In this document: piece after piece, positions 35,526-59,919 of the stretch
How positions within the stretch are numbered: position 1 is the stretch's first letter
How the letters are laid out: the number at the start of each line of letters is the position of its first letter
IMG/VR virus record: IMGVR_UViG_651053022_000004
Span: 1-64,000 of that record
Length of the DNA: 64,000 bases
Direction: 5' to 3' (one strand)
Source: a virus
Lineage: Duplodnaviria > Heunggongvirae > Uroviricota > Caudoviricetes
Notes under the pieces: generated by a model
What the model saw: the letters and a program-made list of their open reading frames with translations, nothing else
Told to the model about the DNA's origin: nothing
Database searches by the model: none
Position numbers and translations under genes: made by a program

Positions 35526-36089
35526 GTGCTGACAACGCAAAAACGAAAATTTGCGCTGGCGCTCATGTCCGGGAAAAACAAAACAGCGTCAGCCATTGCC
35601 GCCGGTTATTCGGCGAAGACCGCCAGGGTTAAAGGCTCGCAGCTGGCAAAAGATCCTGAGGTGCTTGCGTTTATAGCCCGTAAACAATGCGAGACGGTGG
35701 AGGTGGATGAGGTTCCTGTTTACCGGCAGAAAAAATCAGAGCAGGAGGATAAACCCCGTCGCCGTGAGGCGGCTGCAATACCACAGCCGGACGAAAACAA
35801 TCTGGAGATGCCACCGTCCGCGGTGATGTCTCCTGGTATTGAATATATGGAGGATGGTCTTCCCGATCCGGTGAAAGCCATGGGGCGGATCCTGGTGGAA
35901 AACCTCTGCATTGATCCGAAACTGGCACTGGATGCGGCCTGGCGTCTGGCGCAGTTCACGCACCATAAAAAAGGGGATACCGGGAAAAAATCGGCAAAAG
36001 GTGATGCCGCGAAAAAAGCGGCTAACCGTTTTGCGGTGCCACCGCCCCCCCGACTGGTGGTGAATAACGATAATGAGGGCAACGGATGA
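35526..36089 (+). CDS. Terminase small subunit
   Basis: 187-aa ORF directly upstream of and overlapping the large terminase gene; N-terminal HTH-like region. Confidence 0.75.
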   Translation: MLTTQKRKFALALMSGKNKTASAIAAGYSAKTARVKGSQLAKDPEVLAFIARKQCETVEVDEVPVYRQKKSEQEDKPRRREAAAIPQPDENNLEMPPSAVMSPGIEYMEDGLPDPVKAMGRILVENLCIDPKLALDAAWRLAQFTHHKKGDTGKKSAKGDAAKKAANRFAVPPPPRLVVNNDNEGNG

Positions 36090-37747
36090 TACCTGTATGG
36101 AGCACAGCCTGCCCGGACTGGGCAGAGCGCCTGAAAAAGGGGCTGTCGATTATTCCGGATCCGATTTATCCGGACGAGGCCGCACATGCCCTGGCGATTT
36201 TTAAACAACTGCGGATTGTGGATGCACCTGGTAGCCCTACGTTCGGGGAGTCCTGTGCACCGTGGGTGTTTGACCTGGTGGCGGCCCTGTTTGGCTCCTA
36301 CGATGCGCAGACCGGTGTACGCCATATCAAGGAAGTTTTTATCCTTATCCCCAAGAAAAACTCGAAGTCCACGCTGGCCGCGGGGATCATGATGACTGCA
36401 CTGTTACTGAACTGGCGGCAGGCGGCGGGTTACACGATTCTGGCCCCGACTGTGGAGGTGGCGGCCAACGCCTTCAACCCTGCCCGGGATATGGTACGAC
36501 GTGACGATGATCTGGATGACCTCTGCCAGGTACAGACCCATATCCGGACCATCACCCACCGAGTGACGGACACCACCCTGAAGGTGGTGGCAGCCGATCC
36601 GAATACGGTGTCCGGTATCAAGTCCGTGGGTACGCTGATTGATGAGTTGTGGCTGTTTGGCAAGCAGTGCAAGGCGGAGGACATGTTACGTGAAGCCATA
36701 GGCGGCCTTGCCTCCCGCCCGGAAGGGTTTGTGGTGTATACGACCACCCAGTCGAATGAACCGCCCGCCGGGGTGTTCAGACAGAAACTGCAGTACGCCC
36801 GGGATGTGCGCGACGGCAAAATTCATGATCCGCACTTTCTGCCGGTGATATTTGAACACCCTCCTGAAATGGTGGAAAGCGGGACTAACCTGCTGATGGA
36901 AAACCTCGCCATGGTCAATCCGAATCTCGGCTATTCAGTGGATGAGGCCTTTCTGTACCGGGAGTACCGTAAAGCCCGGGAAGCCGGTGAAGAGACATTC
37001 CGGGGGTTCATGTCAAAACACGCCAATGTGGAAATTGGTCTTGCCCTGCGCTCTGACCGCTGGGCGGGGGCTGATTTCTGGGAAGAGCAGGGCCGTTGTA
37101 TCAGCCTGGACGATATCCTGCGTCGTGCTGATGTGGTGACGGTGGGGATTGACGGCGGAGGGCTGGATGATCTGCTGGGGATGTATGTGATTGGGCGTGA
37201 CCGGGAGACCCGCGAATGGCTGGGCTGGGGCCATGCCTGGGCGCATGAAACCGCGGTGGTCCGACGGAAGAGCGAGGCGTCCCGGTTTCAGGATCTTGTT
37301 GCCTGTGGAGATATGACCATTGTCCGGCGTGTCGGGGATGACACGGCGGAAGTGGCGGAATATGTGCGTCGCATTCATGAGGCTGAGTTACTGGACCATA
37401 TCGGTATTGACCCGTCAGGGGTGGGGCAGATTCTGGATTCACTGGCGGAAGCCGGGATCCCCGACGGAATTGTGGTGGGGATAAGCCAGGGCTGGAAACT
37501 GGGCGGGGCCATTAAAACCACCGAGCGCAAACTGGCTGAAGGGGTGCTGGTGCATGGTGACCAGCCCCTGATGGCCTGGTGTGTCGGCAATGCCCGGGTG
37601 GAGCCTAAAGGTAACGCCATTCTTATCACCAAACAGGCCAGTGGACGGGGAAAAATTGACCCGCTGATGGCGCTGTTCAATGCGGTCTCCCTGATGTCCC
37701 TTAACCCGGAACCGAAAAAGAAAGAATATGCGGTTTTTTTCATATAA
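36086..37747 (+). CDS. Terminase large subunit
   Basis: 553 aa; Walker-A-like ILIPKKNSKST; size and position typical. Confidence 0.85.
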   Translation: MIPVWSTACPDWAERLKKGLSIIPDPIYPDEAAHALAIFKQLRIVDAPGSPTFGESCAPWVFDLVAALFGSYDAQTGVRHIKEVFILIPKKNSKSTLAAGIMMTALLLNWRQAAGYTILAPTVEVAANAFNPARDMVRRDDDLDDLCQVQTHIRTITHRVTDTTLKVVAADPNTVSGIKSVGTLIDELWLFGKQCKAEDMLREAIGGLASRPEGFVVYTTTQSNEPPAGVFRQKLQYARDVRDGKIHDPHFLPVIFEHPPEMVESGTNLLMENLAMVNPNLGYSVDEAFLYREYRKAREAGEETFRGFMSKHANVEIGLALRSDRWAGADFWEEQGRCISLDDILRRADVVTVGIDGGGLDDLLGMYVIGRDRETREWLGWGHAWAHETAVVRRKSEASRFQDLVACGDMTIVRRVGDDTAEVAEYVRRIHEAELLDHIGIDPSGVGQILDSLAEAGIPDGIVVGISQGWKLGGAIKTTERKLAEGVLVHGDQPLMAWCVGNARVEPKGNAILITKQASGRGKIDPLMALFNAVSLMSLNPEPKKKEYAVFFI

Positions 37748-37770: not shown

Positions 37771-37795
37771 CGAACCGCTCCGGCGGTTTTTTTAT
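37771..37795 (+). terminator. Hairpin plus U-tract immediately upstream of the capsid-fusion gene RBS
   Basis: ccgctccggcgg followed by tttttttattttcaggagg. Confidence 0.4.
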
Positions 37796-37810
37796 TTTCA
37801 GGAGGCTGAT

Positions 37811-39748
37811 GTGACTCTTAAACGGGCCTGTTCCCTGCTGACGGTGAAATCCTTCAGTGAGGATGAACGGGTGATCACCGGGATTGCGTCAACGCCTTCT
37901 CCGGATCGGGATGGTGACATCCTGGAGCCGGAGGGCGCGGAGTTTGGCAGTGCGATCCCGTTTCTCTGGCAGCATGACCATTCCCGCCCGGTGGGGCAGT
38001 GTACGGTGCGCCGGGTCAGCGAAGGGCTGGAAATCACGGCAACACTGGTGAAGCCCGTACCGGATATGCCGTCGCAACTGGCTGCCCGGCTGGATGAGGT
38101 CTGGGCGGCCATTAAGACCGGGCTGGTCAGGGGGCTGTCCGTGGGCTTCCGTCCCCATGAATACACCTTTCTGGACGGAGGCGGACTGCATTTTCTGCGC
38201 TGGGAACTGATGGAGGTGTCTGCCGTCACCGTGCCCGCGAATGCGGAATGCACCATCCGGACCATTAAATCTTACGACCGCCCGTTTTCTGCCGCGTCCG
38301 GCAACCGGAAACCGGTGGTGAAAATCGCATCTTCTGCCGGCGCTGCGGCACAGTCAACAACCGTTTTTCATAAGGAAAAGACCATAATGAATATTGGCGA
38401 ACAGATTAAAAGTTTTGAAAACAAGCGTGCAGCGCTGGCAGCCTCCCTTGAGGAGGTCATGACCAAAGCCGCAGAGGAAGGGCGCACGCTGGATGTGGAG
38501 GAGGAAGAGCATTACGACAACACCGCAGCGGAAATCCGTCAGGTGGATGCGCACCTGAAGCGCCTGCGTGAACTGGAAGCCGGTAAGGCCGCCACGGCGC
38601 AGCCGGTGAAACAGGCCGGTAACGGGAATGTGGCCGCGGTGGCTTCTGCGCCGGTGATCCGTGTGGAGCAGAAACTGGATAAGGGGATTGGCTTCGCCCG
38701 CTTTGCCAAATCGCTGGCTGCGGCTAAAGGCGTCCGATCTGAAGCCCTGGAAGTGGCCCGTCGTCAGTATCCGGATGACAGTCGTCTGCATCATGTCCTG
38801 AAATCGGCAGTGGGCGCGGGGACCACCACGGATCCGCAGTGGGCAGGCAGCCTGTCTGAATATCAGGAATACGCACAGGACTTTATTGATTACCTGCGTC
38901 CGCAGACCATTATCGGGCGATTTGGTCAGGGCGGGATCCCTGCACTTCGTCAGGTGCCATTCAATATCCGTGTGCACGCCCAGGTGTCCGGCGGTGCTGC
39001 CGGCTGGGTGGGTGAGGGTAAGGCAAAACCCCTGACGAAGTTTGATTTTGAATCCATCACCTTCAGTCATGCGAAGGTGTCGGCCATTGCGGTACTGACG
39101 GAAGAATTGATCCGTTTTTCCAGTCCGGCTGCTGATGCACTGGTCCGTAATGCGCTGGCGGAAGCGGTGGTGGCGCGTCTGGATACAGACTTTGTGGACC
39201 CGAAAAAAGCCGCAGTGGCAGATGTCTCCCCGGCGTCCATCACCCATGATGTGAAGGGCACGGCATCAACCGGTAACCCGGATGCGGATGCAGAGGCTGC
39301 GTTTGGACAGTTTGTGGCAGCAAACCTGCAGCCCACCGGTGCGGTCTGGCTGATGTCCAGCACCAATGCCCTGGCACTGTCCATGCGTAAAAATGCGCTG
39401 GGTCAGAAGGAATACCCGGACATGACCCTGCTGGGTGGCTCCTTCCAGGGGCTGCCGGTGATTGTCTCCCAGTACGTGGGTGACCAGCTGGTGCTGGTGA
39501 ATGCCCCGGATATTTATCTGGCGGATGACGGCGGCGTGGCAGTGGATATGTCCCGCGAGGCATCACTGGAAATGCAGTCTGAGCCGACCGGCGACAGTAC
39601 CACGCCGTCCCCGGTGGAGCTGGTTTCCATGTTCCAGACAGGCAGCGTGGCCATCCGTGCGGAGCGCTGGATCAACTGGCGTCGTCGCCGTACTGCGGCG
39701 GTGGCGGTGATCACCGGAGTGAACTACGGCAGTGCGTCCGGCGGCTGA
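37811..39748 (+). CDS. Prohead protease - scaffold-like linker - HK97-fold major capsid protein fusion
   Basis: 645 aa; N-terminus (…GIASTPSPDRDGDILEP…) protease-like, central coiled-coil-like acidic segment, C-terminus capsid-like; paralogous to the separate protease and capsid of the third module. Confidence 0.75.
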   Translation: MTLKRACSLLTVKSFSEDERVITGIASTPSPDRDGDILEPEGAEFGSAIPFLWQHDHSRPVGQCTVRRVSEGLEITATLVKPVPDMPSQLAARLDEVWAAIKTGLVRGLSVGFRPHEYTFLDGGGLHFLRWELMEVSAVTVPANAECTIRTIKSYDRPFSAASGNRKPVVKIASSAGAAAQSTTVFHKEKTIMNIGEQIKSFENKRAALAASLEEVMTKAAEEGRTLDVEEEEHYDNTAAEIRQVDAHLKRLRELEAGKAATAQPVKQAGNGNVAAVASAPVIRVEQKLDKGIGFARFAKSLAAAKGVRSEALEVARRQYPDDSRLHHVLKSAVGAGTTTDPQWAGSLSEYQEYAQDFIDYLRPQTIIGRFGQGGIPALRQVPFNIRVHAQVSGGAAGWVGEGKAKPLTKFDFESITFSHAKVSAIAVLTEELIRFSSPAADALVRNALAEAVVARLDTDFVDPKKAAVADVSPASITHDVKGTASTGNPDADAEAAFGQFVAANLQPTGAVWLMSSTNALALSMRKNALGQKEYPDMTLLGGSFQGLPVIVSQYVGDQLVLVNAPDIYLADDGGVAVDMSREASLEMQSEPTGDSTTPSPVELVSMFQTGSVAIRAERWINWRRRRTAAVAVITGVNYGSASGG

Positions 39749-39792: not shown

Positions 39793-40014
39793 ATGGCAAA
39801 GATCCGATATCTGCAGGGCACGCATGATGCCCGGGCCGGGGATATCCGTGATGTGGCACAGCCGTGTGCGGAGGTGCTGGTTCGCCTGGGAAAGGCGGAG
39901 TACATCACGGTGCGACGTCCGGCAGGTCAGAAAAAGAAACGTGATGCGGAGCATGGCGAATGTGGAACCTTTTACGGCGAACCCGAAAAAACCAGAAATC
40001 AGGACGTGACGTAA
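39793..40014 (+). CDS. Hypothetical small protein between capsid and portal genes
   Basis: 73-aa ORF after a GGGAGGCGtgCGCCTCCC hairpin; overlaps the portal start. Confidence 0.3.
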   Translation: MAKIRYLQGTHDARAGDIRDVAQPCAEVLVRLGKAEYITVRRPAGQKKKRDAEHGECGTFYGEPEKTRNQDVT

Positions 40015-41636
40015 GAGAGGCGGGCTGGACCAGCCTGTTTCAGGCGGTGGCTGAGCCCTTTTCCGGCGCCTGGCAGCAGGGCGTGAAAGCCGATCCTGAA
40101 GCCGTCCTCTCCTTTCATGCGGTGTTTGCATGTATTTCGCTGATATCCCGGGATATCGCCAAAATGCGGCTGCGTCTTATGCAGACGGATGCGCATGGGA
40201 TACGCAGGGAAACGCGCCGGGGGGATATTGCCCGCCTCTGTCGTCGTCCCAACGCCCAGCAGAACCGCATCCAGTTTTTTGAACTGTGGCTGAACGCCAA
40301 ACTGCGTCATGGCAATACGGTGGTGCTGAAAATCCGTAATGCCCGGGGGCAGATCAAAGAACTGCGTATTCTGGACTGGAGCCGGGTTGAACCTCTGGTG
40401 GCGGATGACGGCGAGGTGTTCTACCGCATCACGCCGGACCGGAACTGCGGGATCACGGAGGCGGTGACGGTGCCTGCCCGGGAAGTGATCCACGACCGGT
40501 TTAACTGTTTTTTTCATCCGCTTATAGGATTGCCGCCGGTGTATGCCGCCGGGCTGGCGGCCACGCAGGGGCATCATATTCAGGAAAATTCGACGTCTTT
40601 TTTCAGAAATGGCGGCAGGCCGTCCGGGGTGATTGAGATCCCCGGCAGTATTACGGAAGAAAATGCGAAAAAACTGAAGAGCAACTGGGACAGCGGGTAT
40701 ACAGGCGAAAATGCGGGGAAAACGGCCATTCTGAGCAACGGGGCAAAATACAACCCCACGACGTTTTCACCTGTGGATGCGCAGACGGTGGAACAACTGA
40801 AGATGACCGCTGAAATTGTCTGTTCGGTGTTCCGTGTCCCGGCCTACAAGATTGGCGTGGGACAACCGCCTTCCAGTGACAACGTGGAGGCGCTGGAGCA
40901 GCAGTATTATTCCCAGTGCCTGCAGACGCTGATTGAGTCCATTGAACTGTTACTGGATGAGGCGCTGGAAACGGGGGAAAACGAGAGTACAGAATTTGAT
41001 GTCACCACGCTGCTGAGAATGGACAGTGAGCGGCGCATGAAAACGCTGGGGGATGCGGTGAAAAATACGCTTCTCACGCCCAATGAGGCCCGTAAACGGG
41101 AGAACCTGCCGCCCCTGGCCGGCGGTGATGCACTGTATCTTCAGCAGCAGAACTACAGTCTGGAGGCGCTGTCCCGTCGTGATGCCCGTGAGGATCCGTT
41201 CGCGTCTGCCGGGAAAACAGTTTCATCACAGCTGCCTGACGGCGCATCTGACGGTAATAAGGCAATCAGTGAAACAGAGCATGATGCGGTGAAAGCGATG
41301 TTCAGGGGGGATACTGAGAAAATGACGGAACGGGAACTGTCCATTATTCGTGCACTGGGAGAAGAATTCTCCACAGTGCTGGCGGATTTACAGCGCACAT
41401 TTGAGGGGAAGATGGCCTCGCAGGCACAAGCGTTTGAAGAGAAACTGACTTCCCTGTCGGCGGTATTACAGAAGCATGTGACGGTGGATGAGGTGCGTCC
41501 GGTTCTGCAGGCGATGGTGGATGACGCTGTGGGGGCCATTCCGGTACCGCGTGATGGTCGTGATTATGATCCGGATGTACTGCAGCATGGTGAAGGAGGC
41601 TGTAAGCCATATCCCTGTTCCGCGCGACGGTCGTGA
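39960..41636 (+). CDS. Portal protein (3' end enters a tandem-repeat region; start uncertain)
   Basis: 558 aa; colinear with the third-module portal (…FF(R)NGG…, …FNVPA/FRVPAYKIG…); its C-terminus carries the first PVPRDGRDYDPDVLQ unit. Confidence 0.7.
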   Translation: MWNLLRRTRKNQKSGRDVREAGWTSLFQAVAEPFSGAWQQGVKADPEAVLSFHAVFACISLISRDIAKMRLRLMQTDAHGIRRETRRGDIARLCRRPNAQQNRIQFFELWLNAKLRHGNTVVLKIRNARGQIKELRILDWSRVEPLVADDGEVFYRITPDRNCGITEAVTVPAREVIHDRFNCFFHPLIGLPPVYAAGLAATQGHHIQENSTSFFRNGGRPSGVIEIPGSITEENAKKLKSNWDSGYTGENAGKTAILSNGAKYNPTTFSPVDAQTVEQLKMTAEIVCSVFRVPAYKIGVGQPPSSDNVEALEQQYYSQCLQTLIESIELLLDEALETGENESTEFDVTTLLRMDSERRMKTLGDAVKNTLLTPNEARKRENLPPLAGGDALYLQQQNYSLEALSRRDAREDPFASAGKTVSSQLPDGASDGNKAISETEHDAVKAMFRGDTEKMTERELSIIRALGEEFSTVLADLQRTFEGKMASQAQAFEEKLTSLSAVLQKHVTVDEVRPVLQAMVDDAVGAIPVPRDGRDYDPDVLQHGEGGCKPYPCSARRS

Positions 41637-41910
41637 CTATGATCCCGATGTTCTGCAGAAGGCGGTGAATGATGCGGTCGCAAATATTCCGCAGCCGGCG
41701 GACGGTAAAAGTCTCACCCCGGATGATGTGCGTCCGATGCTTGAACAGATGGTGAAGGAGGCTGTAAGCCATATCCCTGTTCCGCGTGATGGTCGTGACT
41801 ACGATCCGGAAGTAGATGTGCGTCCGATGCTTGAACAGATGGTGAAGGAGGCGGTAAGCCATATTCATGTTCCGCGTGATGGTCGTGACTACGATCCGGA
41901 TGTTCTGCAG
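41539..41910 (+). repeat. Tandem coding repeats with PVPRDGRDYDPD units, including a perfect 90-nt tandem pair
   Basis: Units at ~41539, 41612, 41773 and 41863; 41731-41820 and 41821-41910 near-identical. Confidence 0.8.
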
Positions 41911-42384
41911 AAGGCGGTTCTGGATGCGGTGAGTGCCCTGCCGGCTCCGCAGGACGGGCGTGATGCCACGGCTCTGGAAATACTCCCCGCCATTGACGAT
42001 CAAAAATCCTTTCCCCGGGGCACGTATGCCACACACCAGGGCGGACTCTGGCGGGCGTATGAAAAAACGCACGGGATGCGGGGATGGGAATGCCTGGTTG
42101 ACGGGGTGGCGGATATTGACGTCAGCATGACGGGTGAGCGGTTGTTCTCTGTGGTGGTCCGGCAGAGCAGTGGCCAGCGTACGGAAAAAACATTTTCCCT
42201 GCCGGTGATGCTCTACCGCGGTGTGTTCAGAGCCGGTGAAACCTACCACCCCGGCGATACGGTGACGTGGGGGGGCTCGCTGTGGCACTGCAACAGTATG
42301 ACCGAAGATAAACCCGGAGAAGCTCATTCATCAGCCTGGACCCTGGCTGCAAAACGTGGGCGGGATGCAGGAGGCGGAAAATGA
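41587..42384 (+). CDS. Repeat-containing protein of unknown function (possibly once contiguous with the portal ORF)
   Basis: 266 aa starting MVKEAVSHIPVPRDGRDYDPDVLQKAV...; frame differs by one nucleotide from the portal ORF at ~41586. Confidence 0.45.
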   Translation: MVKEAVSHIPVPRDGRDYDPDVLQKAVNDAVANIPQPADGKSLTPDDVRPMLEQMVKEAVSHIPVPRDGRDYDPEVDVRPMLEQMVKEAVSHIHVPRDGRDYDPDVLQKAVLDAVSALPAPQDGRDATALEILPAIDDQKSFPRGTYATHQGGLWRAYEKTHGMRGWECLVDGVADIDVSMTGERLFSVVVRQSSGQRTEKTFSLPVMLYRGVFRAGETYHPGDTVTWGGSLWHCNSMTEDKPGEAHSSAWTLAAKRGRDAGGGK

Positions 42385-51324: not shown

Positions 51325-53517
51325 ATGGGAAAAGGTGGCGGTAAGGCACACACGCCTCGTGAGGCGAAGGATAATCTCAAATCCACGCAGATGATGAGCG
51401 TGATTGATGCGATTGGTGAGGGACCGATAGAAGGTCCGGTGAAGGGACTGCAGAGTATTCTGGTGAACAAAACCCCACTGACGGACACGGACGGCAATCC
51501 CGTGATACACGGTGTGACGGCGGTCTGGCGCGCCGGGGAGCAGGAGCAGACACCACCGGAAGGCTTTGAGTCCTCCGGAGCTGAAACCGGACTGGGCGTG
51601 GAAGTGACGAAGGCAAAACCGGTGACGCGCACCATTACGTCCGCGAACATTGACCGCCTGCGGGTTACCTTCGGGGTGCAGTCACTGGTGGAGACCACCT
51701 CAAAGGGTGACCGTAACCCGGCATCCGTCCGCCTGCTGATTCAGTTACAGCGTAACGGTAACTGGGTGACAGAAAAGGACGTCACCATTAACGGCAAGAC
51801 CACCTCACAGTTCCTGGCCTCGGTGATTCTGGATAATCTGCCTCCCCGGCCCTTTAACATCCGGATGGTCAGGGAGACGGCGGACAGCACCACGGACCAG
51901 CTGCAGAATAAGACGCTGTGGTCGTCATACACCGAAATCATCGATGTGAAACAGTGCTACCCGAACACGGCCATTGTGGGGCTGCAGGTGGATGCGGAGC
52001 AGTTCGGCGGCCAGCAGATGACGGTGAACTACCATATCCGCGGTCGCATCATCCAGGTGCCGTCAAACTATGACCCGGAAAAACGCACGTATAGTGGTAT
52101 CTGGGACGGCAGTCTGAAACCGGCATACAGCAACAACCCGGCCTGGTGTCTGTGGGACATGCTGACTCACCCGCGCTACGGCATGGGAAAACGTCTGGGG
52201 GCGGCGGATGTGGACAAGTGGGCGCTGTATGCCATCGGGCAGTACTGCGACCAGACGGTCCCGGATGGTTTCGGGGGGACCGAGCCGCGGATGACCTTTA
52301 ATGCGTACCTGGCACAACAGCGTAAGGCGTGGGACGTTCTCAGTGATTTCTGCTCTGCGATGCGCTGTATGCCGGTATGGAACGGTCAGACGCTGACGTT
52401 CGTTCAGGACCGCCCGTCGGATGTGGTGTGGCCGTACACCAACAGCGATGTGGTGGTGGATGATAACGGCGTGGGATTCCGCTACAGCTTCAGTGCCCTG
52501 AAGGACCGGCACACGGCGGTGGAGGTGAATTACACCGACCCGCAGAACGGCTGGCAGACCTCCACGGAACTGGTGGAAGACCCGGAAGCCATACTGCGCT
52601 ACGGACGCAACCTGCTGAAGATGGACGCGTTCGGCTGTACCAGCCGCGGTCAGGCCCACCGTGCCGGACTGTGGGTGATAAAGACCGAACTGCTGGAAAC
52701 GCAGACGGTGGATTTCACGCTCGGGTCTCAGGGGCTGCGGCACACACCCGGTGACATTATTGAAATCTGTGATAATGACTATGCCGGGACCCTGACCGGC
52801 GGACGTGTCCTGTCCATTGATGCTGCCACCCGCACCCTGACGCTGGACCGTGAGGTTACCCTGCCGGAGACAGGTACATCGGCGGTGAACCTGATTAACG
52901 GCAGCGGTAAGCCGGTGAGTGTGGACATCACCGCACACCCCGCGCCGGACCGGATACAGGTCAGTACCCTGCCTGATGGTGTGGAGACATACGGGGTGTG
53001 GGGACTCTCCCTGCCGTCACTGCGCCGTCGCCTGTTCCGCTGTGTCTCCATCCGGGAAAACACGGACGGCACCTTTGCCATCACGGCGGTGCAGCACGTA
53101 CCGGAAAAAGAAGCCATCGTGGATAACGGTGCCCGCTTTGAGCCGCAGTCAGGTTCCCTGAACAGCGTCATCCCACCGGCAGTGCAGCACCTGACGGTGG
53201 AGGTGAGCGCAGCTGACGGCCAGTATCTGGCGCAGGCGAAATGGGACACGCCGCGGGTGGTGAAGGGTGTGCGCTTCAGTCTGCGCCTGACCAGTGGTAA
53301 GGGAACGGATGCCAGACTGGTGACCACCGCCATCACCGCAGACACGGAGCACCGTTTCAGCGGCCTGCCGCTCGGGGAATACACCCTGACGGTGCGGGCG
53401 ATAAACAGCTATGGCCAGCAGGGTGAACCTGCCACCACCACCTTCCGGATTGCCGCACCGGCAGCACCGTCGCGGATTGAGCTGACGCCGGGCTATTTTC
53501 AGATAACTAAACGATAG
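51325..53517 (+). CDS. J: Host specificity/tail tip protein J, C-terminally truncated
   Basis: 730-aa product colinear with lambda J as I recall it up to …APAAPSRIELTPGYFQIT, then two codons and a stop supplied by repeat R1; the C-terminal third is absent. Confidence 0.85.
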   Translation: MGKGGGKAHTPREAKDNLKSTQMMSVIDAIGEGPIEGPVKGLQSILVNKTPLTDTDGNPVIHGVTAVWRAGEQEQTPPEGFESSGAETGLGVEVTKAKPVTRTITSANIDRLRVTFGVQSLVETTSKGDRNPASVRLLIQLQRNGNWVTEKDVTINGKTTSQFLASVILDNLPPRPFNIRMVRETADSTTDQLQNKTLWSSYTEIIDVKQCYPNTAIVGLQVDAEQFGGQQMTVNYHIRGRIIQVPSNYDPEKRTYSGIWDGSLKPAYSNNPAWCLWDMLTHPRYGMGKRLGAADVDKWALYAIGQYCDQTVPDGFGGTEPRMTFNAYLAQQRKAWDVLSDFCSAMRCMPVWNGQTLTFVQDRPSDVVWPYTNSDVVVDDNGVGFRYSFSALKDRHTAVEVNYTDPQNGWQTSTELVEDPEAILRYGRNLLKMDAFGCTSRGQAHRAGLWVIKTELLETQTVDFTLGSQGLRHTPGDIIEICDNDYAGTLTGGRVLSIDAATRTLTLDREVTLPETGTSAVNLINGSGKPVSVDITAHPAPDRIQVSTLPDGVETYGVWGLSLPSLRRRLFRCVSIRENTDGTFAITAVQHVPEKEAIVDNGARFEPQSGSLNSVIPPAVQHLTVEVSAADGQYLAQAKWDTPRVVKGVRFSLRLTSGKGTDARLVTTAITADTEHRFSGLPLGEYTLTVRAINSYGQQGEPATTTFRIAAPAAPSRIELTPGYFQITKR

Positions 53518-56879: not shown

Positions 56880-58095
56880 TGCTCTGTTTCGCAGTGAGCC
56901 TCTGGAAAATCCCTCGGTTCCGGTAACCGGAGAGGCCGCAGAGACGGATAATATTTTTGCCCGGGATGTGTATGTCAGTCCGGAAACGTCCATGAGGCTG
57001 GCTGCTGTCTATGCCTGTATTTATGTTATTTCATCCAGTGTGGCTCAGATGCCCCTGCATGTGATGCGAAAAACGAATGAGCATGTTCAGCCGGCACGCG
57101 ATCACCCGTTGTTCTGGCTCGTTCATGATGAACCGAATGCCTGGCAGACCAGCTATAAGTGGCGGGAACTGAAGCAGCGTCATGTGCTGGGGTGGGGCAA
57201 TGGTTATACGTGGGTGAAACGTAATCGTCGTGGCGAGGTTACCAGTCTTGAATGCTGTATGCCATGGGAAACCACGTTACTTAACACCGGAGGGCGTCAT
57301 ACCTACGGTGTGTATAACGAAGAGGGTGCATTTGCGGTAAGTCCGGACGACATGATCCATATCAGGGCGCTGGGAAACAATCAGAAAATGGGACTGAGTC
57401 CGATCATGCAGCATGCTGAAACCATTGGTATGGGAATGAGTGGTCAGCAGTATACCAGTGCTTTTTTTAACGGTAATGCCCGTCCTGCCGGGATTATTTC
57501 TGTGAAAAATGAACTGAACGAACAGAGTTGGAGCAGGCTCAAGAATATGTGGCAGCGGGCGGTGACAGCGCTTCGCAGCCAGGAAAATAAAACCATGTTG
57601 CTGCCTGCGCAACTGGATTACCGCGCTCTGACAGTTTCTCCGGTGGATGCTCAGATCATTGATATGACCAAGCTGAACCGGTCGATGATTGCCGGGATTT
57701 TTAATGTCCCGGCGCACATGATTAATGACCTGGAAAAAGCCACATTTTCGAATATTACGCAGCAGGCGATTCAGTTTGTTCGCTACACGATGATGCCCTG
57801 GGTTGCGAACTGGGAGCAGGAGCTTAACCGTCGCCTGTTTACCCGTACAGAACGGGCTGCCGGGTATTACGTTCGTTTCAACCTCACGGGGTTGCTCCGT
57901 GGGACCCCACAGGAGCGTGCGCAGTTCTATCACTTTGCCATTACAGATGGCTGGATGAGTCGGAATGAAGCCAGGGCATTTGAGGATATGAACCCGGTTG
58001 ACGGTCTGGATGAAATGCTGGTCAGCGTAAATGCAGCAAATCCGTTGAATAACTTTAAAGATACGAAAGGCAAAGAGGAAAAGAACGATGAATGA
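56869..58095 (+). CDS. Portal protein (HK97-type)
   Basis: 408 aa; position after terL and before the prohead protease. Confidence 0.85.
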   Translation: MLLDALFRSEPLENPSVPVTGEAAETDNIFARDVYVSPETSMRLAAVYACIYVISSSVAQMPLHVMRKTNEHVQPARDHPLFWLVHDEPNAWQTSYKWRELKQRHVLGWGNGYTWVKRNRRGEVTSLECCMPWETTLLNTGGRHTYGVYNEEGAFAVSPDDMIHIRALGNNQKMGLSPIMQHAETIGMGMSGQQYTSAFFNGNARPAGIISVKNELNEQSWSRLKNMWQRAVTALRSQENKTMLLPAQLDYRALTVSPVDAQIIDMTKLNRSMIAGIFNVPAHMINDLEKATFSNITQQAIQFVRYTMMPWVANWEQELNRRLFTRTERAAGYYVRFNLTGLLRGTPQERAQFYHFAITDGWMSRNEARAFEDMNPVDGLDEMLVSVNAANPLNNFKDTKGKEEKNDE

Positions 58096-58687
58096 CCGTG
58101 AAACGCGCTGTTACAGCGGGGAGGTGCGGGCGGAACAATATGATAATGCCCCGACCCACATTCTGGGCTATGGCTCGGTATTTAACAGTCGTTCAGAACC
58201 TCTGTGGGGATTTCGTGAAATCATCAAGCCGGGGGCTTTTGATGATGTACTGAATGATGATGTACGTGGCTTGTTTAATCATGATCCTAATTTCATTCTC
58301 GGACGAAGTTCTGCCGGCACGTTGTCATTGTCGGTGGATGAACGCGGTTTACGTTATGACATTGTTGCACCGGATACTCCGACTATTTGTGACCTGGTGC
58401 TATCTCCAATGTTGCGTGGTGACATTAATCAGTCCTCGTTCGCGTTTCGTGTCGCCCGTGACGGAGAGAGCTGGTATGAAGACGACGAGGGGATTGTTAT
58501 CCGGGAAATCACGCGCATTTCTCGTCTGTATGACGTCAGCCCGGTGACATATCCGGCCTATCAGGACGCAGACTCTGGTGTCCGCTCAATGAAAGCCTGG
58601 CAGGAAGCGCGGGCGAGTGGTGCGCTGAAGAAAGCTGTTAACGAACGAATGGCGCGTGAGCGTCTTTTGACCCTTCTTAATGCATAA
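58088..58687 (+). CDS. Prohead protease (HK97-type)
   Basis: 199 aa between portal and capsid genes; similar to the N-terminal domain of the fusion ORF at 37811. Confidence 0.8.
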   Translation: MNDRETRCYSGEVRAEQYDNAPTHILGYGSVFNSRSEPLWGFREIIKPGAFDDVLNDDVRGLFNHDPNFILGRSSAGTLSLSVDERGLRYDIVAPDTPTICDLVLSPMLRGDINQSSFAFRVARDGESWYEDDEGIVIREITRISRLYDVSPVTYPAYQDADSGVRSMKAWQEARASGALKKAVNERMARERLLTLLNA

Positions 58688-58701: not shown

Positions 58702-59919
58702 ATGAAACTTCATGAGATGAAGCAAAAACGAAACACCATTGCAAAGGATATGCGTGCACTGCATGAAAAAATTGGTGATAACGCATGGACTGATGAGCAA
58801 CGGGCAGAGTGGAACAGGGCGAAAGCTGAGCTGGATGCGCTGGATGAGCAAATCGCCCGTGAAGAAGAGTTGCGCCGTCAGGATCAGGCATATGTGGATG
58901 AGTCCGGGCCGGAAGAGCGCCAGAATAATGAGGCGGAGAACGGGAAAAAGGCGGTGGAAGAGAAGCGCGCTGCGGCATTTAACCGTTTTCTGCGTGCCGG
59001 ATTTGCAGAACTGAATGCTGAAGAGCGTAATCTGATGCGTGAACTGCGGGCTCAGAGTGTAACAACGGATTCTCAGGGCGGATATACGGTGCCCACGCAG
59101 ATGCGTAACAAAATCATTGACACCATGAAGGCTTATGGCGGGATTGCCAGTGTGGCGCAACTTCTGACCACATCAACCGGGCAGGATATCACCTGGTCAA
59201 CGTCTGATGGCACGACTGAAGAGGGCGAACTGCTGGCGGAAAATACAGCCGCAACGGAACAGGATGTGACGTTCGGGACCGCTATTCTGGGGGCTAAAAA
59301 GCTGTCATCAAAAATAATTCGTGTGTCCAATGAGCTGCTCCAGGACAGTGGGGTGGATATTGAATCTTATCTGGCAAACCGTATTGCCCAGCGTATTGGT
59401 CGTGGAGAGGCAAAATATCTGGTTCAGGGGACCGGAACGGGATCACCGTTACAGCCAAAAGGGCTGGCAGCGTCGGTGACGGGAACCATCCAGACTGTAG
59501 CCTCTGCCGCTTTCACCTGGAAAGAAATGAATGCCCTGAAACATGCCATTGATCCGGCATATCGTGGTGGGCCGAAATACCGCTGGGCATTCAATGATGC
59601 CACATTGCAGACTATTGAAGAGATGGAGGATGGACAGAAACGCCCGTTATGGCTGCCGGATATTGCAGGCGGTACGCCGGCTACTGTGCTGGGGATCCCT
59701 TATGTTATTGATCAGGCTATTGACGGGATTGGTACCGGAAAAAAATTCATTTTCCTGGGGGATTTCAACCGCTTTATCATTCGCCGCGTTACTTATATGG
59801 AACTGAAACGTCTGGTTGAGCGTTATGCTGAGTTTGATCAGGTGGCATTTCTGGCTTTCCATCGTTTTGACTGTGTGCTGGAAGATGTGGCAGCCATCAA
59901 GGCGCTCACTGGCAAATAA
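58702..59919 (+). CDS. Major capsid protein (HK97-fold) with N-terminal scaffold-like delta domain
   Basis: 405 aa; coiled-coil N-terminus (…RAEWNRAKAELDALDEQIAREEELRRQ…), position after protease. Confidence 0.85.
   Translation: MKLHEMKQKRNTIAKDMRALHEKIGDNAWTDEQRAEWNRAKAELDALDEQIAREEELRRQDQAYVDESGPEERQNNEAENGKKAVEEKRAAAFNRFLRAGFAELNAEERNLMRELRAQSVTTDSQGGYTVPTQMRNKIIDTMKAYGGIASVAQLLTTSTGQDITWSTSDGTTEEGELLAENTAATEQDVTFGTAILGAKKLSSKIIRVSNELLQDSGVDIESYLANRIAQRIGRGEAKYLVQGTGTGSPLQPKGLAASVTGTIQTVASAAFTWKEMNALKHAIDPAYRGGPKYRWAFNDATLQTIEEMEDGQKRPLWLPDIAGGTPATVLGIPYVIDQAIDGIGTGKKFIFLGDFNRFIIRRVTYMELKRLVERYAEFDQVAFLAFHRFDCVLEDVAAIKALTGK

Follow-up and report, generated by a model that had tools for sequence, protein, structure and literature searches.

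The ORF at positions 37811..39748 of the analysed 64,000-nucleotide stretch of DNA (referred to here as the window) is very probably the gene for the head shell of a lambdoid E. coli prophage that is BP-4795-like (Marienburgvirus-type); in it a four-part reading frame carries a tethered prohead protease together with the major capsid protein and may possess a second, internal start. A fusion of this kind is already known, and protease-scaffold-capsid fusions have also been published for Arthrobacter phages and Lactococcus phage Nocturne116. The sole point that may be new is a conserved internal ribosome-binding site which, judging from sequence comparison, may additionally give rise to a capsid protein lacking the protease. 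As found, the gene itself matters little, with databases already labelling such copies, for example that of phage BP-4795 (accession AJ556162), as both head protein and prohead protease.

A reading frame of 645 aa with a GTG start was identified at exactly 37811..39748 on the plus strand, the strand on which all features of this gene and its head module described below are located. An identical ORF of 1938 nt has been called by both RefSeq and GenBank in near-identical prophages. Its Shine-Dalgarno sequence, AGGAGG (37800..37805), was read from the sequence 5 nt before the GTG, and a consensus scan identified a terminator-like hairpin (7 bp stem) with a T-run at 37772..37799, between the gene of the large terminase subunit and the fusion gene. 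The full-length ORF comprises a protease, a linker, a delta/scaffolding domain and an HK97-fold capsid protein, and was assigned to PHROG 617, the profile of which covers the fusion end to end (aa 1-639 against profile positions 7-626 of 626, E 1e-261) with both domains in one ORF. The first-pass annotation had described a single chain of 645 aa containing both protease and capsid protein, and this was confirmed by the ORF being found at these coordinates with Peptidase_S78 and Phage_capsid matches that are both above the Pfam cut-off.

The same gene (645 aa, 95-99.8% identity) is represented by ORF56 of phage BP-4795 (CAD88857), by phages YYZ-2008 and 2851, by Stx1a/Stx2c-converting phages, by WP_000173031.1 and by PHROG 617, and copies with 95-99.7% DNA identity in BP-4795, YYZ-2008, 2851 and many Stx phages are annotated as "major head protein/prohead protease". 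Records of the BP-4795 type were found to share the neighbours seen in the window (the small and large terminase subunits, the fusion, a small ORF and the portal), with the fusion differing in nothing material and its GTG start being shared; only the portal gene differs, in its number of repeats and in a frameshift. Of 5426 complete E. coli genomes, 1258 (about a quarter) carry the fusion gene. Among related clusters at 50% identity (1197 with E <= 1e-30), most members are 630-680 aa in length, and almost all of the 150 best cluster representatives fall in this range and align over aa ~3-642. In about a dozen relatives the gene order is the same but protease and capsid protein are encoded as two genes. 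The fused gene and the placement of protease and capsid protein before the portal are what is usual in this large family, which has been annotated for a long time.

The N-terminal part of the protein (aa 1-146, 37811..38248) was identified as an S78 (HK97-type) prohead protease domain on the basis of Pfam PF04586, PHROG 80, tblastn, residue conservation and an AlphaFold2 (AF2) model. The match to PF04586 (Peptidase_S78) is modest, with aa 48-152 aligning to profile positions 51-155 of 165 at 34.7 bits (gathering score 21), while the stricter equivalog TIGR01543 gave 46.5 bits, under its cut-off of 59. A stronger match was obtained to PHROG 80 (head maturation protease, E 1.9e-41), and tblastn showed the N-terminus to resemble T5-like prohead proteases (28-34% identity, E ~1e-8). 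Residues H55 (37973-37975, within LWQHD), S110 (38138-38140, within GLSVGF) and S137 were unchanged in all 113 fused homologues compared (36-78% identity), with E135 retained in 112 of them. H55 and S110 lie in motifs of the His-Asp type and the Ser-x-Gly-Phe type, and are presumably the catalytic pair of the S78 family. In the AF2 model a beta-rich domain occupies aa 11-146 (block pLDDT 85-95). The suggestion that this region is a protease survived the comparison by which it could have failed, as the S78 match lies above the Pfam gathering score.

Alignment of this domain to the stand-alone protease encoded further along the window (58088-58687) had been proposed as a check, and its outcome was mixed. 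H55, S110 and S137 line up with the H, S and S of the stand-alone protease, but direct BLASTP of the fusion against it found nothing significant, and the same was true of BLASTP against the stand-alone capsid protein (58702-59919). Using hhalign, the family profile and the single stand-alone protease sequence were aligned at the correct motifs with a probability of 2.6%. The kinship of the fusion with the stand-alone protease and capsid protein is, on these alignments, visible only at the profile level. With BLASTP being non-significant, the domain call was based on Pfam, PHROG and NCBIfam profiles together with residue conservation. No solved S78 protease turned up when the PDB was searched by sequence and by profile, and the 50 best Foldseek matches of the full-length model were all capsid proteins or whole fusions, and hence uninformative as to the fold of the protease part.

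The protease domain is followed by a disordered, hypervariable linker (aa 147-192, 38249..38386), defined from the AF2 model, with pLDDT below 50 across aa 147-188, and from the alignment, of which it is the most variable and most indel-rich part. Next is a delta/scaffolding domain (aa 193 to about 290, 38387..38680, the C-terminal boundary being approximate) supported by AF2, TIGR01554 and hhalign. This domain contains a helical hairpin at aa 195-262, with AF2 helices at 195-223 and 229-262 (pLDDT about 96); the TIGR01554 match begins at aa 204, corresponding to profile position 3, and hhalign placed residue 4 onward of the stand-alone capsid protein from residue 200 of the fusion. What had been described as a coiled-coil linker is thus correct as to the presence of a helical segment but not as to its nature, this being the normal delta domain of HK97-type capsid proteins, with the true linker being the disordered region at 147-192.

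The remainder of the protein (aa about 291-645, with the stop codon, 38681..39748) was identified as an HK97-fold major capsid domain using PF05065, TIGR01554 and Foldseek. PF05065 (Phage_capsid) matched aa 386-635 at 53.1 bits (cut-off 24.2) and TIGR01554 matched aa 204-584 on profile positions 3-355 of 385 at 78.1 bits (cut-off 27.5). In Foldseek, the C-terminal part of the model matched the capsid proteins of Bxb1 (E 8e-15), HK97 (E 7e-11 to 1e-9), D3 and T5 with a probability of 1.0, and target-normalised TM-scores against solved HK97-fold capsid proteins were 0.5-0.73. The model used was predicted by AF2 from an alignment of 113 sequences (pLDDT 84) and shows the four parts described; its best structural matches in BFVD were other full-length protease-capsid fusions. 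A model from a shallow alignment of 18 sequences (pLDDT 40.8) was discarded.

The fusion gene was found to be situated within a head module, being preceded by genes for the small terminase subunit (35526..36089; Pfam Terminase_2, E 1.3e-8, and so annotated in near-identical records) and, immediately 5' of it, the large terminase subunit (36086..37747; Pfam TerL_ATPase and TerL_nuclease, PHROG 9 with E 4.5e-145). An HK97-type portal gene with a repeat-containing C-terminal extension follows at 39960..41636 (Pfam PF04860, E 1.7e-81; TIGR01537, E 8e-105). The claim that the fusion precedes the portal gene holds, with the large terminase directly 5' and only an ORF of 73 aa between fusion and portal. 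This small, conserved ORF (39793..40014) overlaps the start of the portal gene, belongs to PHROG 829 (E 3.7e-39, unknown function), is annotated as a hypothetical protein in near-identical records and has homologues at the same place in Enterobacterales loci. A portal gene 3' of protease and capsid was identified in all 49 related proteobacterial loci inspected and in phage vB_SBP39; the order terminase, protease, capsid, portal is therefore typical of the lineage. The locus is a helpful illustration that HK97-like head modules need not follow the order portal-protease-capsid.

Burkholderia phage vB_SBP39 has the same order as the window (small and large terminase subunits, protease, capsid, small ORF and portal), and its prohead protease (XRX04423) and major capsid protein (XRX04424) share about 39% identity with the fusion over 96% of the protein. 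Unlike the fusion, they are encoded by two genes in different frames, with the protease ending in a C-terminal tail of its own. The gp4/gp5 of HK97 and pb11/pb8 of T5 resemble the product of the window in having an S78 protease and a capsid fold with an N-terminal delta domain, without a separate scaffold gene. They differ in that the protease is separate and the order is portal, protease, capsid, whereas in the window there is a covalent fusion encoded before the portal gene. Protease, scaffold and capsid protein in one ORF, as in the window, are found in ORF18 of Lactococcus phage Nocturne116 and in Q54, in Arthrobacter phages of clusters AM, AU and AN, in Rhodococcus phage RRH1 and in the NCBIfam family NF045541. 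The ORF18 product of Nocturne116 consists of protease, scaffold and capsid protein, with the mature capsid protein, the cleaved C-terminal part, starting at residue 243 (PMC13595954). However, fusions of the Nocturne116, Arthrobacter and RRH1 type are distant from that of the window, with 12-16% identity in structural alignments, and the latter scored 54 bits against NF045541 (prohead protease/major capsid protein fusion protein; cut-off 525) with only aa 48-287 aligned. The fusion of the window and these others probably arose independently.

Three other interpretations of the locus were considered against these data. That the fusion is an artefact, two separate genes having been merged by a pseudogene or by a frameshift from sequencing or assembly, might be suggested by the existence of relatives with separate protease and capsid genes and by the adjoining portal gene, which does carry a frameshift in its repeat region. 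This is hardly conceivable and is refuted by the conservation data, as the ORF of 645 aa is present in more than 1200 complete genomes and in phage isolates, the cluster at 99-100% identity contains 9916 member sequences, and conserved fusions 630-680 aa long are present in three proteobacterial classes at identities as low as 36%. It is also very unlikely that the N-terminal domain has degenerated into an inactive protease that now acts as scaffold or cargo only, with maturation performed by another protease such as that of a co-resident prophage. While scores against protease models are weak and other proteases are available in the window (that at 58088-58687 and, as a positional candidate, the ORF at 19792-21246 in module 1), the invariance of H55, S110 and S137 and the near-invariance of E135 (112 of 113 homologues) argue against loss of activity, as does the lack of a second protease gene both in the module and in BP-4795 and vB_SBP39, autonomous phages in which the module occurs.

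The third interpretation concerns the conventional module nearby. The first-pass annotation had noted a third module with separate protease and capsid genes, and Pfam verified both the protease (58088-58687, E 1.6e-40) and the capsid gene (58702-59919, E 2.5e-70). It had gone on to regard the fusion as an alternative assembly strategy sitting beside a conventional one in the same locus, and this part was not upheld, the modules belonging to different prophage lineages juxtaposed in a prophage mosaic, with the fusion and its gene order being normal for the family. It is most improbable that the fused module and its conventional neighbour work together, or compete, within a single functional locus. 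They are physically adjacent, and 596 genomes show the same junction between modules 2 and 3; however, the proteins of both modules are without detectable pairwise similarity, the terminase, portal, protease and capsid genes are separately present in each, and the fused module stands alone in autonomous phages. Nothing was found to link modules 2 and 3 functionally. The junction of modules 1 and 2 was contiguous in no complete E. coli genome.

A candidate internal translation start was identified by sequence comparison at 38372..38389, consisting of AAGGA (38372-38376), a spacer of 10 nt and the ATG of M193 (38387-38389). In relatives with split genes, the capsid gene begins at the residue aligned to M193, and the arrangement TAAGGA-10 nt-ATG is common to the window and to the start of the capsid gene of phage vB_SBP39. 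The start codon and the Shine-Dalgarno core are conserved across 35 fused loci, with two loci having TTG in place of ATG, and in 84 of the 113 fusions a methionine precedes the E197 column by 4-5 residues despite the hypervariable linker. Anti-Shine-Dalgarno pairing at position 193 has a mean of about -6.2 kcal/mol (background -2.4), ranking 16th of 638 positions, while in single genes the strength before M193 is only within the top 4-15% of positions. The glycine codon within the Shine-Dalgarno core is GGA in 20 of 26 cases, which are phylogenetically related and not independent, compared with 9% gene-wide, and in the same loci GGA makes up no more than 14% at each of 23 conserved glycine columns. 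As GGA is kept here while control glycine codons are shuffled, this points to selection at the nucleotide level. Similar sequences elsewhere in the gene (aa 45-47, 127-130, 405-407 and 579-580) are accounted for by amino-acid conservation, including that upstream of the conserved M580, which is due to a conserved Asp-Asp-Gly-Gly. The motif at the junction being a mere by-product of conserved amino acids was considered and rejected, with the hypervariable linker and the biased synonymous codon arguing otherwise. Taken together, the conserved start codon and Shine-Dalgarno core suggest internal initiation at M193.

Nested in-frame head genes are a classical arrangement, examples being lambda C/Nu3, Mu I/Z, P2 gpO and herpesvirus UL26/UL26.5. 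The gene of the window resembles the lambda C/Nu3 type in having an in-frame internal start codon with a candidate ribosome-binding site within a longer gene, and if M193 is used, it would likewise yield two products with a shared C-terminus, a long one that includes the protease and a shorter one, setting the stoichiometry of enzyme to structural or scaffold protein. A difference is that the classical pairs share the C-terminus of a scaffold, while in the window the shared part would be the capsid protein itself, both products being predicted. Whether the fused genes of the proteobacterial family are nested genes in this sense we consider an evenly balanced question; if so, the M193 start would give a protease-free capsid precursor, translation would set the amount of protease per procapsid, and repeated switching between fused and split states would be close to neutral, as either state retains the start of the capsid gene itself.

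A somewhat less probable, though still tenable, explanation is that only the protein of 645 aa is made, with each capsid subunit carrying its own protease, and that the methionine and Shine-Dalgarno sequence at the junction are a relic of two genes or reflect selection on amino acids, for example at a Lys-Gly/Glu self-cleavage site. Consistent with this, the Shine-Dalgarno sequence of the ORF itself is far stronger (AAGGAGG-type; positions 1-3 have a mean of -7.7 to -8.3 kcal/mol, compared with -6.1 for position 193), conserved Gly, Glu and Asp residues produce chance Shine-Dalgarno-like sequences elsewhere in the gene, including before M580, the conserved Lys-Gly/Glu could be selected as a cleavage site, and published accounts of such fusions speak of cleavage only. 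However, a relic would be expected to have decayed in the protein's most variable segment among relatives with 40-50% protein identity, yet the start codon persists there. The synonymous choice of GGA in 20 of 26 cases, alongside fully shuffled control glycine columns, also argues against this explanation, as does the replacement of ATG in two loci by TTG, itself a start codon. Literature searches found no paper reporting internal initiation in protease-capsid fusions, and none of relevance on the proteomic analysis of BP-4795-type virions.

If HK97, T5 and Nocturne116 are a guide, capsid subunits would be driven by their delta domains to co-assemble around the portal as a procapsid. A covalent tether, rather than recruitment via a C-terminal targeting tail, would bring the protease inside, and on closure of the shell the protease would cut off itself and the delta domain, after which the cleaved fragments would leave and the shell would expand during DNA packaging. 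The maturation cut may fall behind a basic residue somewhere from aa 262 to about 330, with K291/G292 as a candidate, G292 being invariant. The internal ribosome-binding site and the ATG at codon 193 may direct synthesis of a protease-free delta-capsid protein in the same frame, such that the two initiation sites would set the ratio of protease to capsid protein, as in nested pairs such as lambda C/Nu3. Proteolysis, the cleavage sites and the use of the internal start are all points that we infer. A genuine internal start would account for how a covalent fusion escapes packing a protease with every subunit (several hundred per shell), would add a version based on a capsid protein to the classic nested pairs of protease and scaffold genes, and would render automated annotation of these genes with a single product incomplete.

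The portal gene of the window was observed to be frameshifted inside its repeats, relative to the ORF of 861 aa in strain DSM 111506. The rest of its C-terminal extension, comprising repeats and a C-terminal domain, is encoded in another frame at 41488..42384 (PHROG 2271, positions 673-859; PHROG 1289), and the nucleotides of this segment are 100% identical to the 3' end of the intact portal gene of 861 aa.

The ORF at 37811-39748 (+ strand, 645 aa, GTG start) encodes a prohead protease and a major capsid protein in a single chain, exactly as the first-pass annotation had reported, with Pfam domains Peptidase_S78 ("Caudovirus prohead serine protease", aa 48-152, 34.7 bits) and Phage_capsid (aa 386-635, 53.1 bits) both scoring above their gathering scores (21 and 24.2, respectively). 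A strong Shine-Dalgarno (SD) sequence, AGGAGG (37800-37805), lies five bases 5' of the GTG, and the gene is directly preceded by that of the large terminase (36086-37747). Within the 63-nt gap that separates these two genes midway through the late operon lies a terminator-like hairpin with a T-run (37772-37799; 7-bp stem with 4 G-C pairs), a candidate terminator presumably read through under Q antitermination. The portal gene (from 39960; Phage_portal, E 1.7e-81) was confirmed to follow the fusion gene, the sole ORF between them being a conserved 73-aa ORF (39793-40014; PHROG 829, function unknown) that shares 55 nt with the start of the portal gene and whose homologues in Enterobacterales loci occupy the same place.

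An AlphaFold model of the fusion built on an alignment of 113 fused homologues (36-78% identity) reached a pLDDT of 84, compared to 40.8 with a shallow alignment. Four parts were identified in it: a beta-rich domain (aa ~11-146), a disordered stretch (aa 147-188), a helical hairpin of two long helices (aa 195-223 and 229-262, pLDDT about 96) and a C-terminal domain (aa ~293-645). This last part resembles solved HK97-fold capsid proteins (Foldseek, probability 1.0), namely those of Bxb1 (E 8e-15), HK97, D3, T5 and others. The match to TIGR01554 (major_cap_HK97) begins at aa 204, corresponding to profile position 3, and a family profile aligned residue 200 to residue 4 of the third morphogenesis module's stand-alone capsid protein (58702-59919; probability 95%). 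The hairpin is thus the delta/scaffolding domain usual in HK97-type capsid proteins and not a coiled-coil linker, as had been proposed; the true linker is the disordered, hypervariable segment 147-192. G292 (nt 38684-38686; motif LDKGIGFARF), one of only nine invariant columns among the 113 homologues, stands immediately ahead of the helix (aa 293-304) that opens the C-terminal capsid part, and maturation cleavage after K291, at this glycine, is our guess at a candidate site.

The protease-like nature of the N-terminal domain is supported at the sequence level by the Pfam assignment, a match to the head maturation protease profile PHROG 80 (E 1.9e-41), tblastn matches to T5-like prohead proteases (28-34% identity, E about 1e-8) and residue conservation, with H55, S110 and S137 invariant in the 113 fused homologues and E135 present in 112 of them. 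Both the stand-alone protease (58088-58687) and the capsid gene of the third module are real (Pfam E 1.6e-40 and 2.5e-70, respectively). The suggested alignment of the N-terminal domain with this protease was borne out in part: direct BLASTP gave no significant alignment, but the His and Ser of the stand-alone S78 protease align with H55 and S110, which we take to be the catalytic residues of the family. A family profile compared to the single stand-alone protease sequence gave the correct motifs at low probability. The Foldseek lists for the model were filled by capsid matches and so were uninformative on the protease fold, and a sequence search found no solved S78 protease. The domain analysis gave no grounds for rejecting the first-pass reading of this region as protease-like.

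Published examples of fused protease-capsid genes come from Arthrobacter phages (clusters AM, AU and AN) and Rhodococcus phage RRH1 (PMC5513430, PMC11953736), while ORF18 of Lactococcus phage Nocturne116 is a protease, scaffold and capsid protein with the mature capsid protein starting at residue 243 (PMC13595954). In BFVD, the structures most similar to the model were other full-length fusions at 12-16% identity, including those of Lactobacillus phage SA-C12 and Lactococcus phage Q54. The protease-scaffold-capsid architecture is of an already known kind. The NCBIfam model "prohead protease/major capsid protein fusion protein" represents another lineage, the window protein falling far under its cut-off. 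If HK97, T5 and Nocturne116 are a guide, delta domains would drive procapsid assembly on the portal and in doing so carry the tethered protease into the interior, where after assembly it would cut away itself and the delta domain, with the shell expanding upon DNA packaging.

A scan of one genome per species gave 49 loci of Enterobacterales, Alpha- and Betaproteobacteria and one from a Vicinamibacterales MAG (38-80% identity). A portal homologue was found downstream of the protease/capsid region in every locus, and a terminase homologue, where detected, upstream. Burkholderia phage vB_SBP39 shows the same order, with a small ORF in the place of the 73-aa ORF. This head-module lineage is consequently characterized by the order terminase, protease, capsid, small ORF, portal, which is not a peculiarity of the window. 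The two parts are fused in one frame in about 35 loci and are separate genes in different frames in about a dozen (vB_SBP39, Diaphorobacter, Devosia, Paraburkholderia, Qipengyuania, Gallionella and one Brucella locus), with Brucella daejeonensis carrying both the fused (L028) and the split (L041) state in a single genome. In the locus of the Arsenophonus endosymbiont of Aleurodicus floccissimus (L032, 2287-8046), TerL, protease-capsid and portal homologues are each spread over several frames, consistent with a decaying prophage in an insect endosymbiont.

Exhaustive searching of cluster representatives (E <= 1e-30) identified relatives in 1197 clusters at 50% identity, the best 150 of which are nearly all fusions of 630-680 aa. 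Three database proteins, P0001 (1079 aa), P0123 (1094 aa) and P0132 (1091 aa), have ~440 extra N-terminal residues, with a TerL_ATPase Pfam domain in P0001; these are either terminase-protease-capsid read-through fusions or gene-calling/frameshift artefacts. Many E. coli phages and prophages share the 5.7 kb around the fusion gene at 95-99.7% identity, among them BP-4795, YYZ-2008, 2851, JLK-2012 and dozens of Stx1a-, Stx2a- and Stx2c-converting phages; their records label the gene "putative major head protein/prohead protease" or "major capsid protein". Of 5426 complete E. coli genomes, 1258 contain the segment (at a median of 4 sites each), the same 645-aa ORF (RefSeq WP_000173031.1) lies within a complete lambdoid prophage of strain DSM 111506, and the 99%-identity cluster of the protein has 9916 member sequences. 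PHROG 617 ("major head protein") was matched end to end (aa 1-639 on profile 7-626/626, E 1e-261). The gene is therefore very common, with the fusion already annotated in every phage record inspected. It is a known gene and belongs to a large family of protease-scaffold-capsid fusions that has long been annotated.

A possible internal start at M193 goes beyond this annotation and is a modest lead. A few stand-alone capsid proteins among the cluster representatives start exactly at query residues 193-196. The separate capsid gene of vB_SBP39 begins MTIAEKIK, aligned to M193 of the window (MNIGEQIK), and both share TAAGGA, ten bases and ATG at this point. In 35 fused loci, the conserved [N/K/T]-[I/T]-I-A-E-Q-I motif has a start codon (mostly ATG, TTG in two) at its beginning or a few codons ahead of it, and an AAGGA, AAAGGAA or AAGGAGG core lies 6-10 nt 5' of this codon. 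A Met lies 4-5 residues ahead of the E197 column in 84 of the 113 fused proteins, and within 10 residues in 105, despite this being the most variable segment of the protein. Predicted anti-SD pairing averages -6.2 kcal/mol at the candidate start versus -2.4 over all in-frame positions, and position 193 comes 16th among the 638 aligned positions, shortly after the true start. GGA encodes the Gly within the SD core in 20 of 26 cases, versus 9% gene-wide, and its share is at most 14% at any of 23 conserved Gly columns in these loci; since this control shares the same phylogeny, the bias points to selection on nucleotides. On the other hand, the candidate SD is unexceptional within any single gene, an SD-like sequence, arising from a conserved Asp-Asp-Gly-Gly, also precedes a second conserved Met (M580), and the Lys-Gly/Glu at the junction could also be a cleavage site. 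No report of internal initiation in such fusions was found in the literature outside subscription journals. Functional initiation at M193 is given about an even chance. If real, the fusion gene would be a nested pair, comparable to lambda C/Nu3, Mu I/Z and herpesvirus UL26/UL26.5, with the capsid protein itself being the shared part.

The first-pass annotation had also viewed the fused and conventional modules as two assembly strategies in one locus. Its observation stands and its interpretation is partly supported. The window holds three tandem morphogenesis modules, at ~15.7-30 kb (taken as lambda-like from ORF order and sizes only), 35.5-53.5 kb (BP-4795-like, with the fusion gene) and 54.5-64 kb (HK97-like), and a tail-tip gene of the second (51325-53517, 730 aa) is apparently truncated beside the TerS gene of the third. 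These modules are pieces of different prophages. The junction between the second and third recurs in 596 genomes, whereas no complete E. coli genome carries that between the first and second as one contiguous stretch. No pairwise similarity was detectable between proteins of the second and third, and the fused module occurs alone in autonomous phages. Nothing suggests a functional link between the two strategies.

Past its Pfam domain, the portal ORF continues into a C-terminal extension made up of 162-nt (54-aa) tandem repeats and a terminal domain weakly matching CBM_5_12 (portal regions: window, 39960-42384; related loci L001, 23961-26546, L002, 6961-9707 and L006, 6141-8536). Portal and extension form one 861-aa ORF in strain DSM 111506. 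The window repeat block, flanked on both sides by 100% identical sequence, differs from it in length by other than a multiple of 3, thereby splitting the gene into 39960-41636 and 41488-42384, through either real slippage or assembly collapse. As the portal (451 aa) and the protein after it (347 aa; PHROG 1289, of unknown function) are encoded by distinct, overlapping genes in Kluyvera and most other Enterobacterales, the fused-capsid module of E. coli appears to include a second gene fusion.
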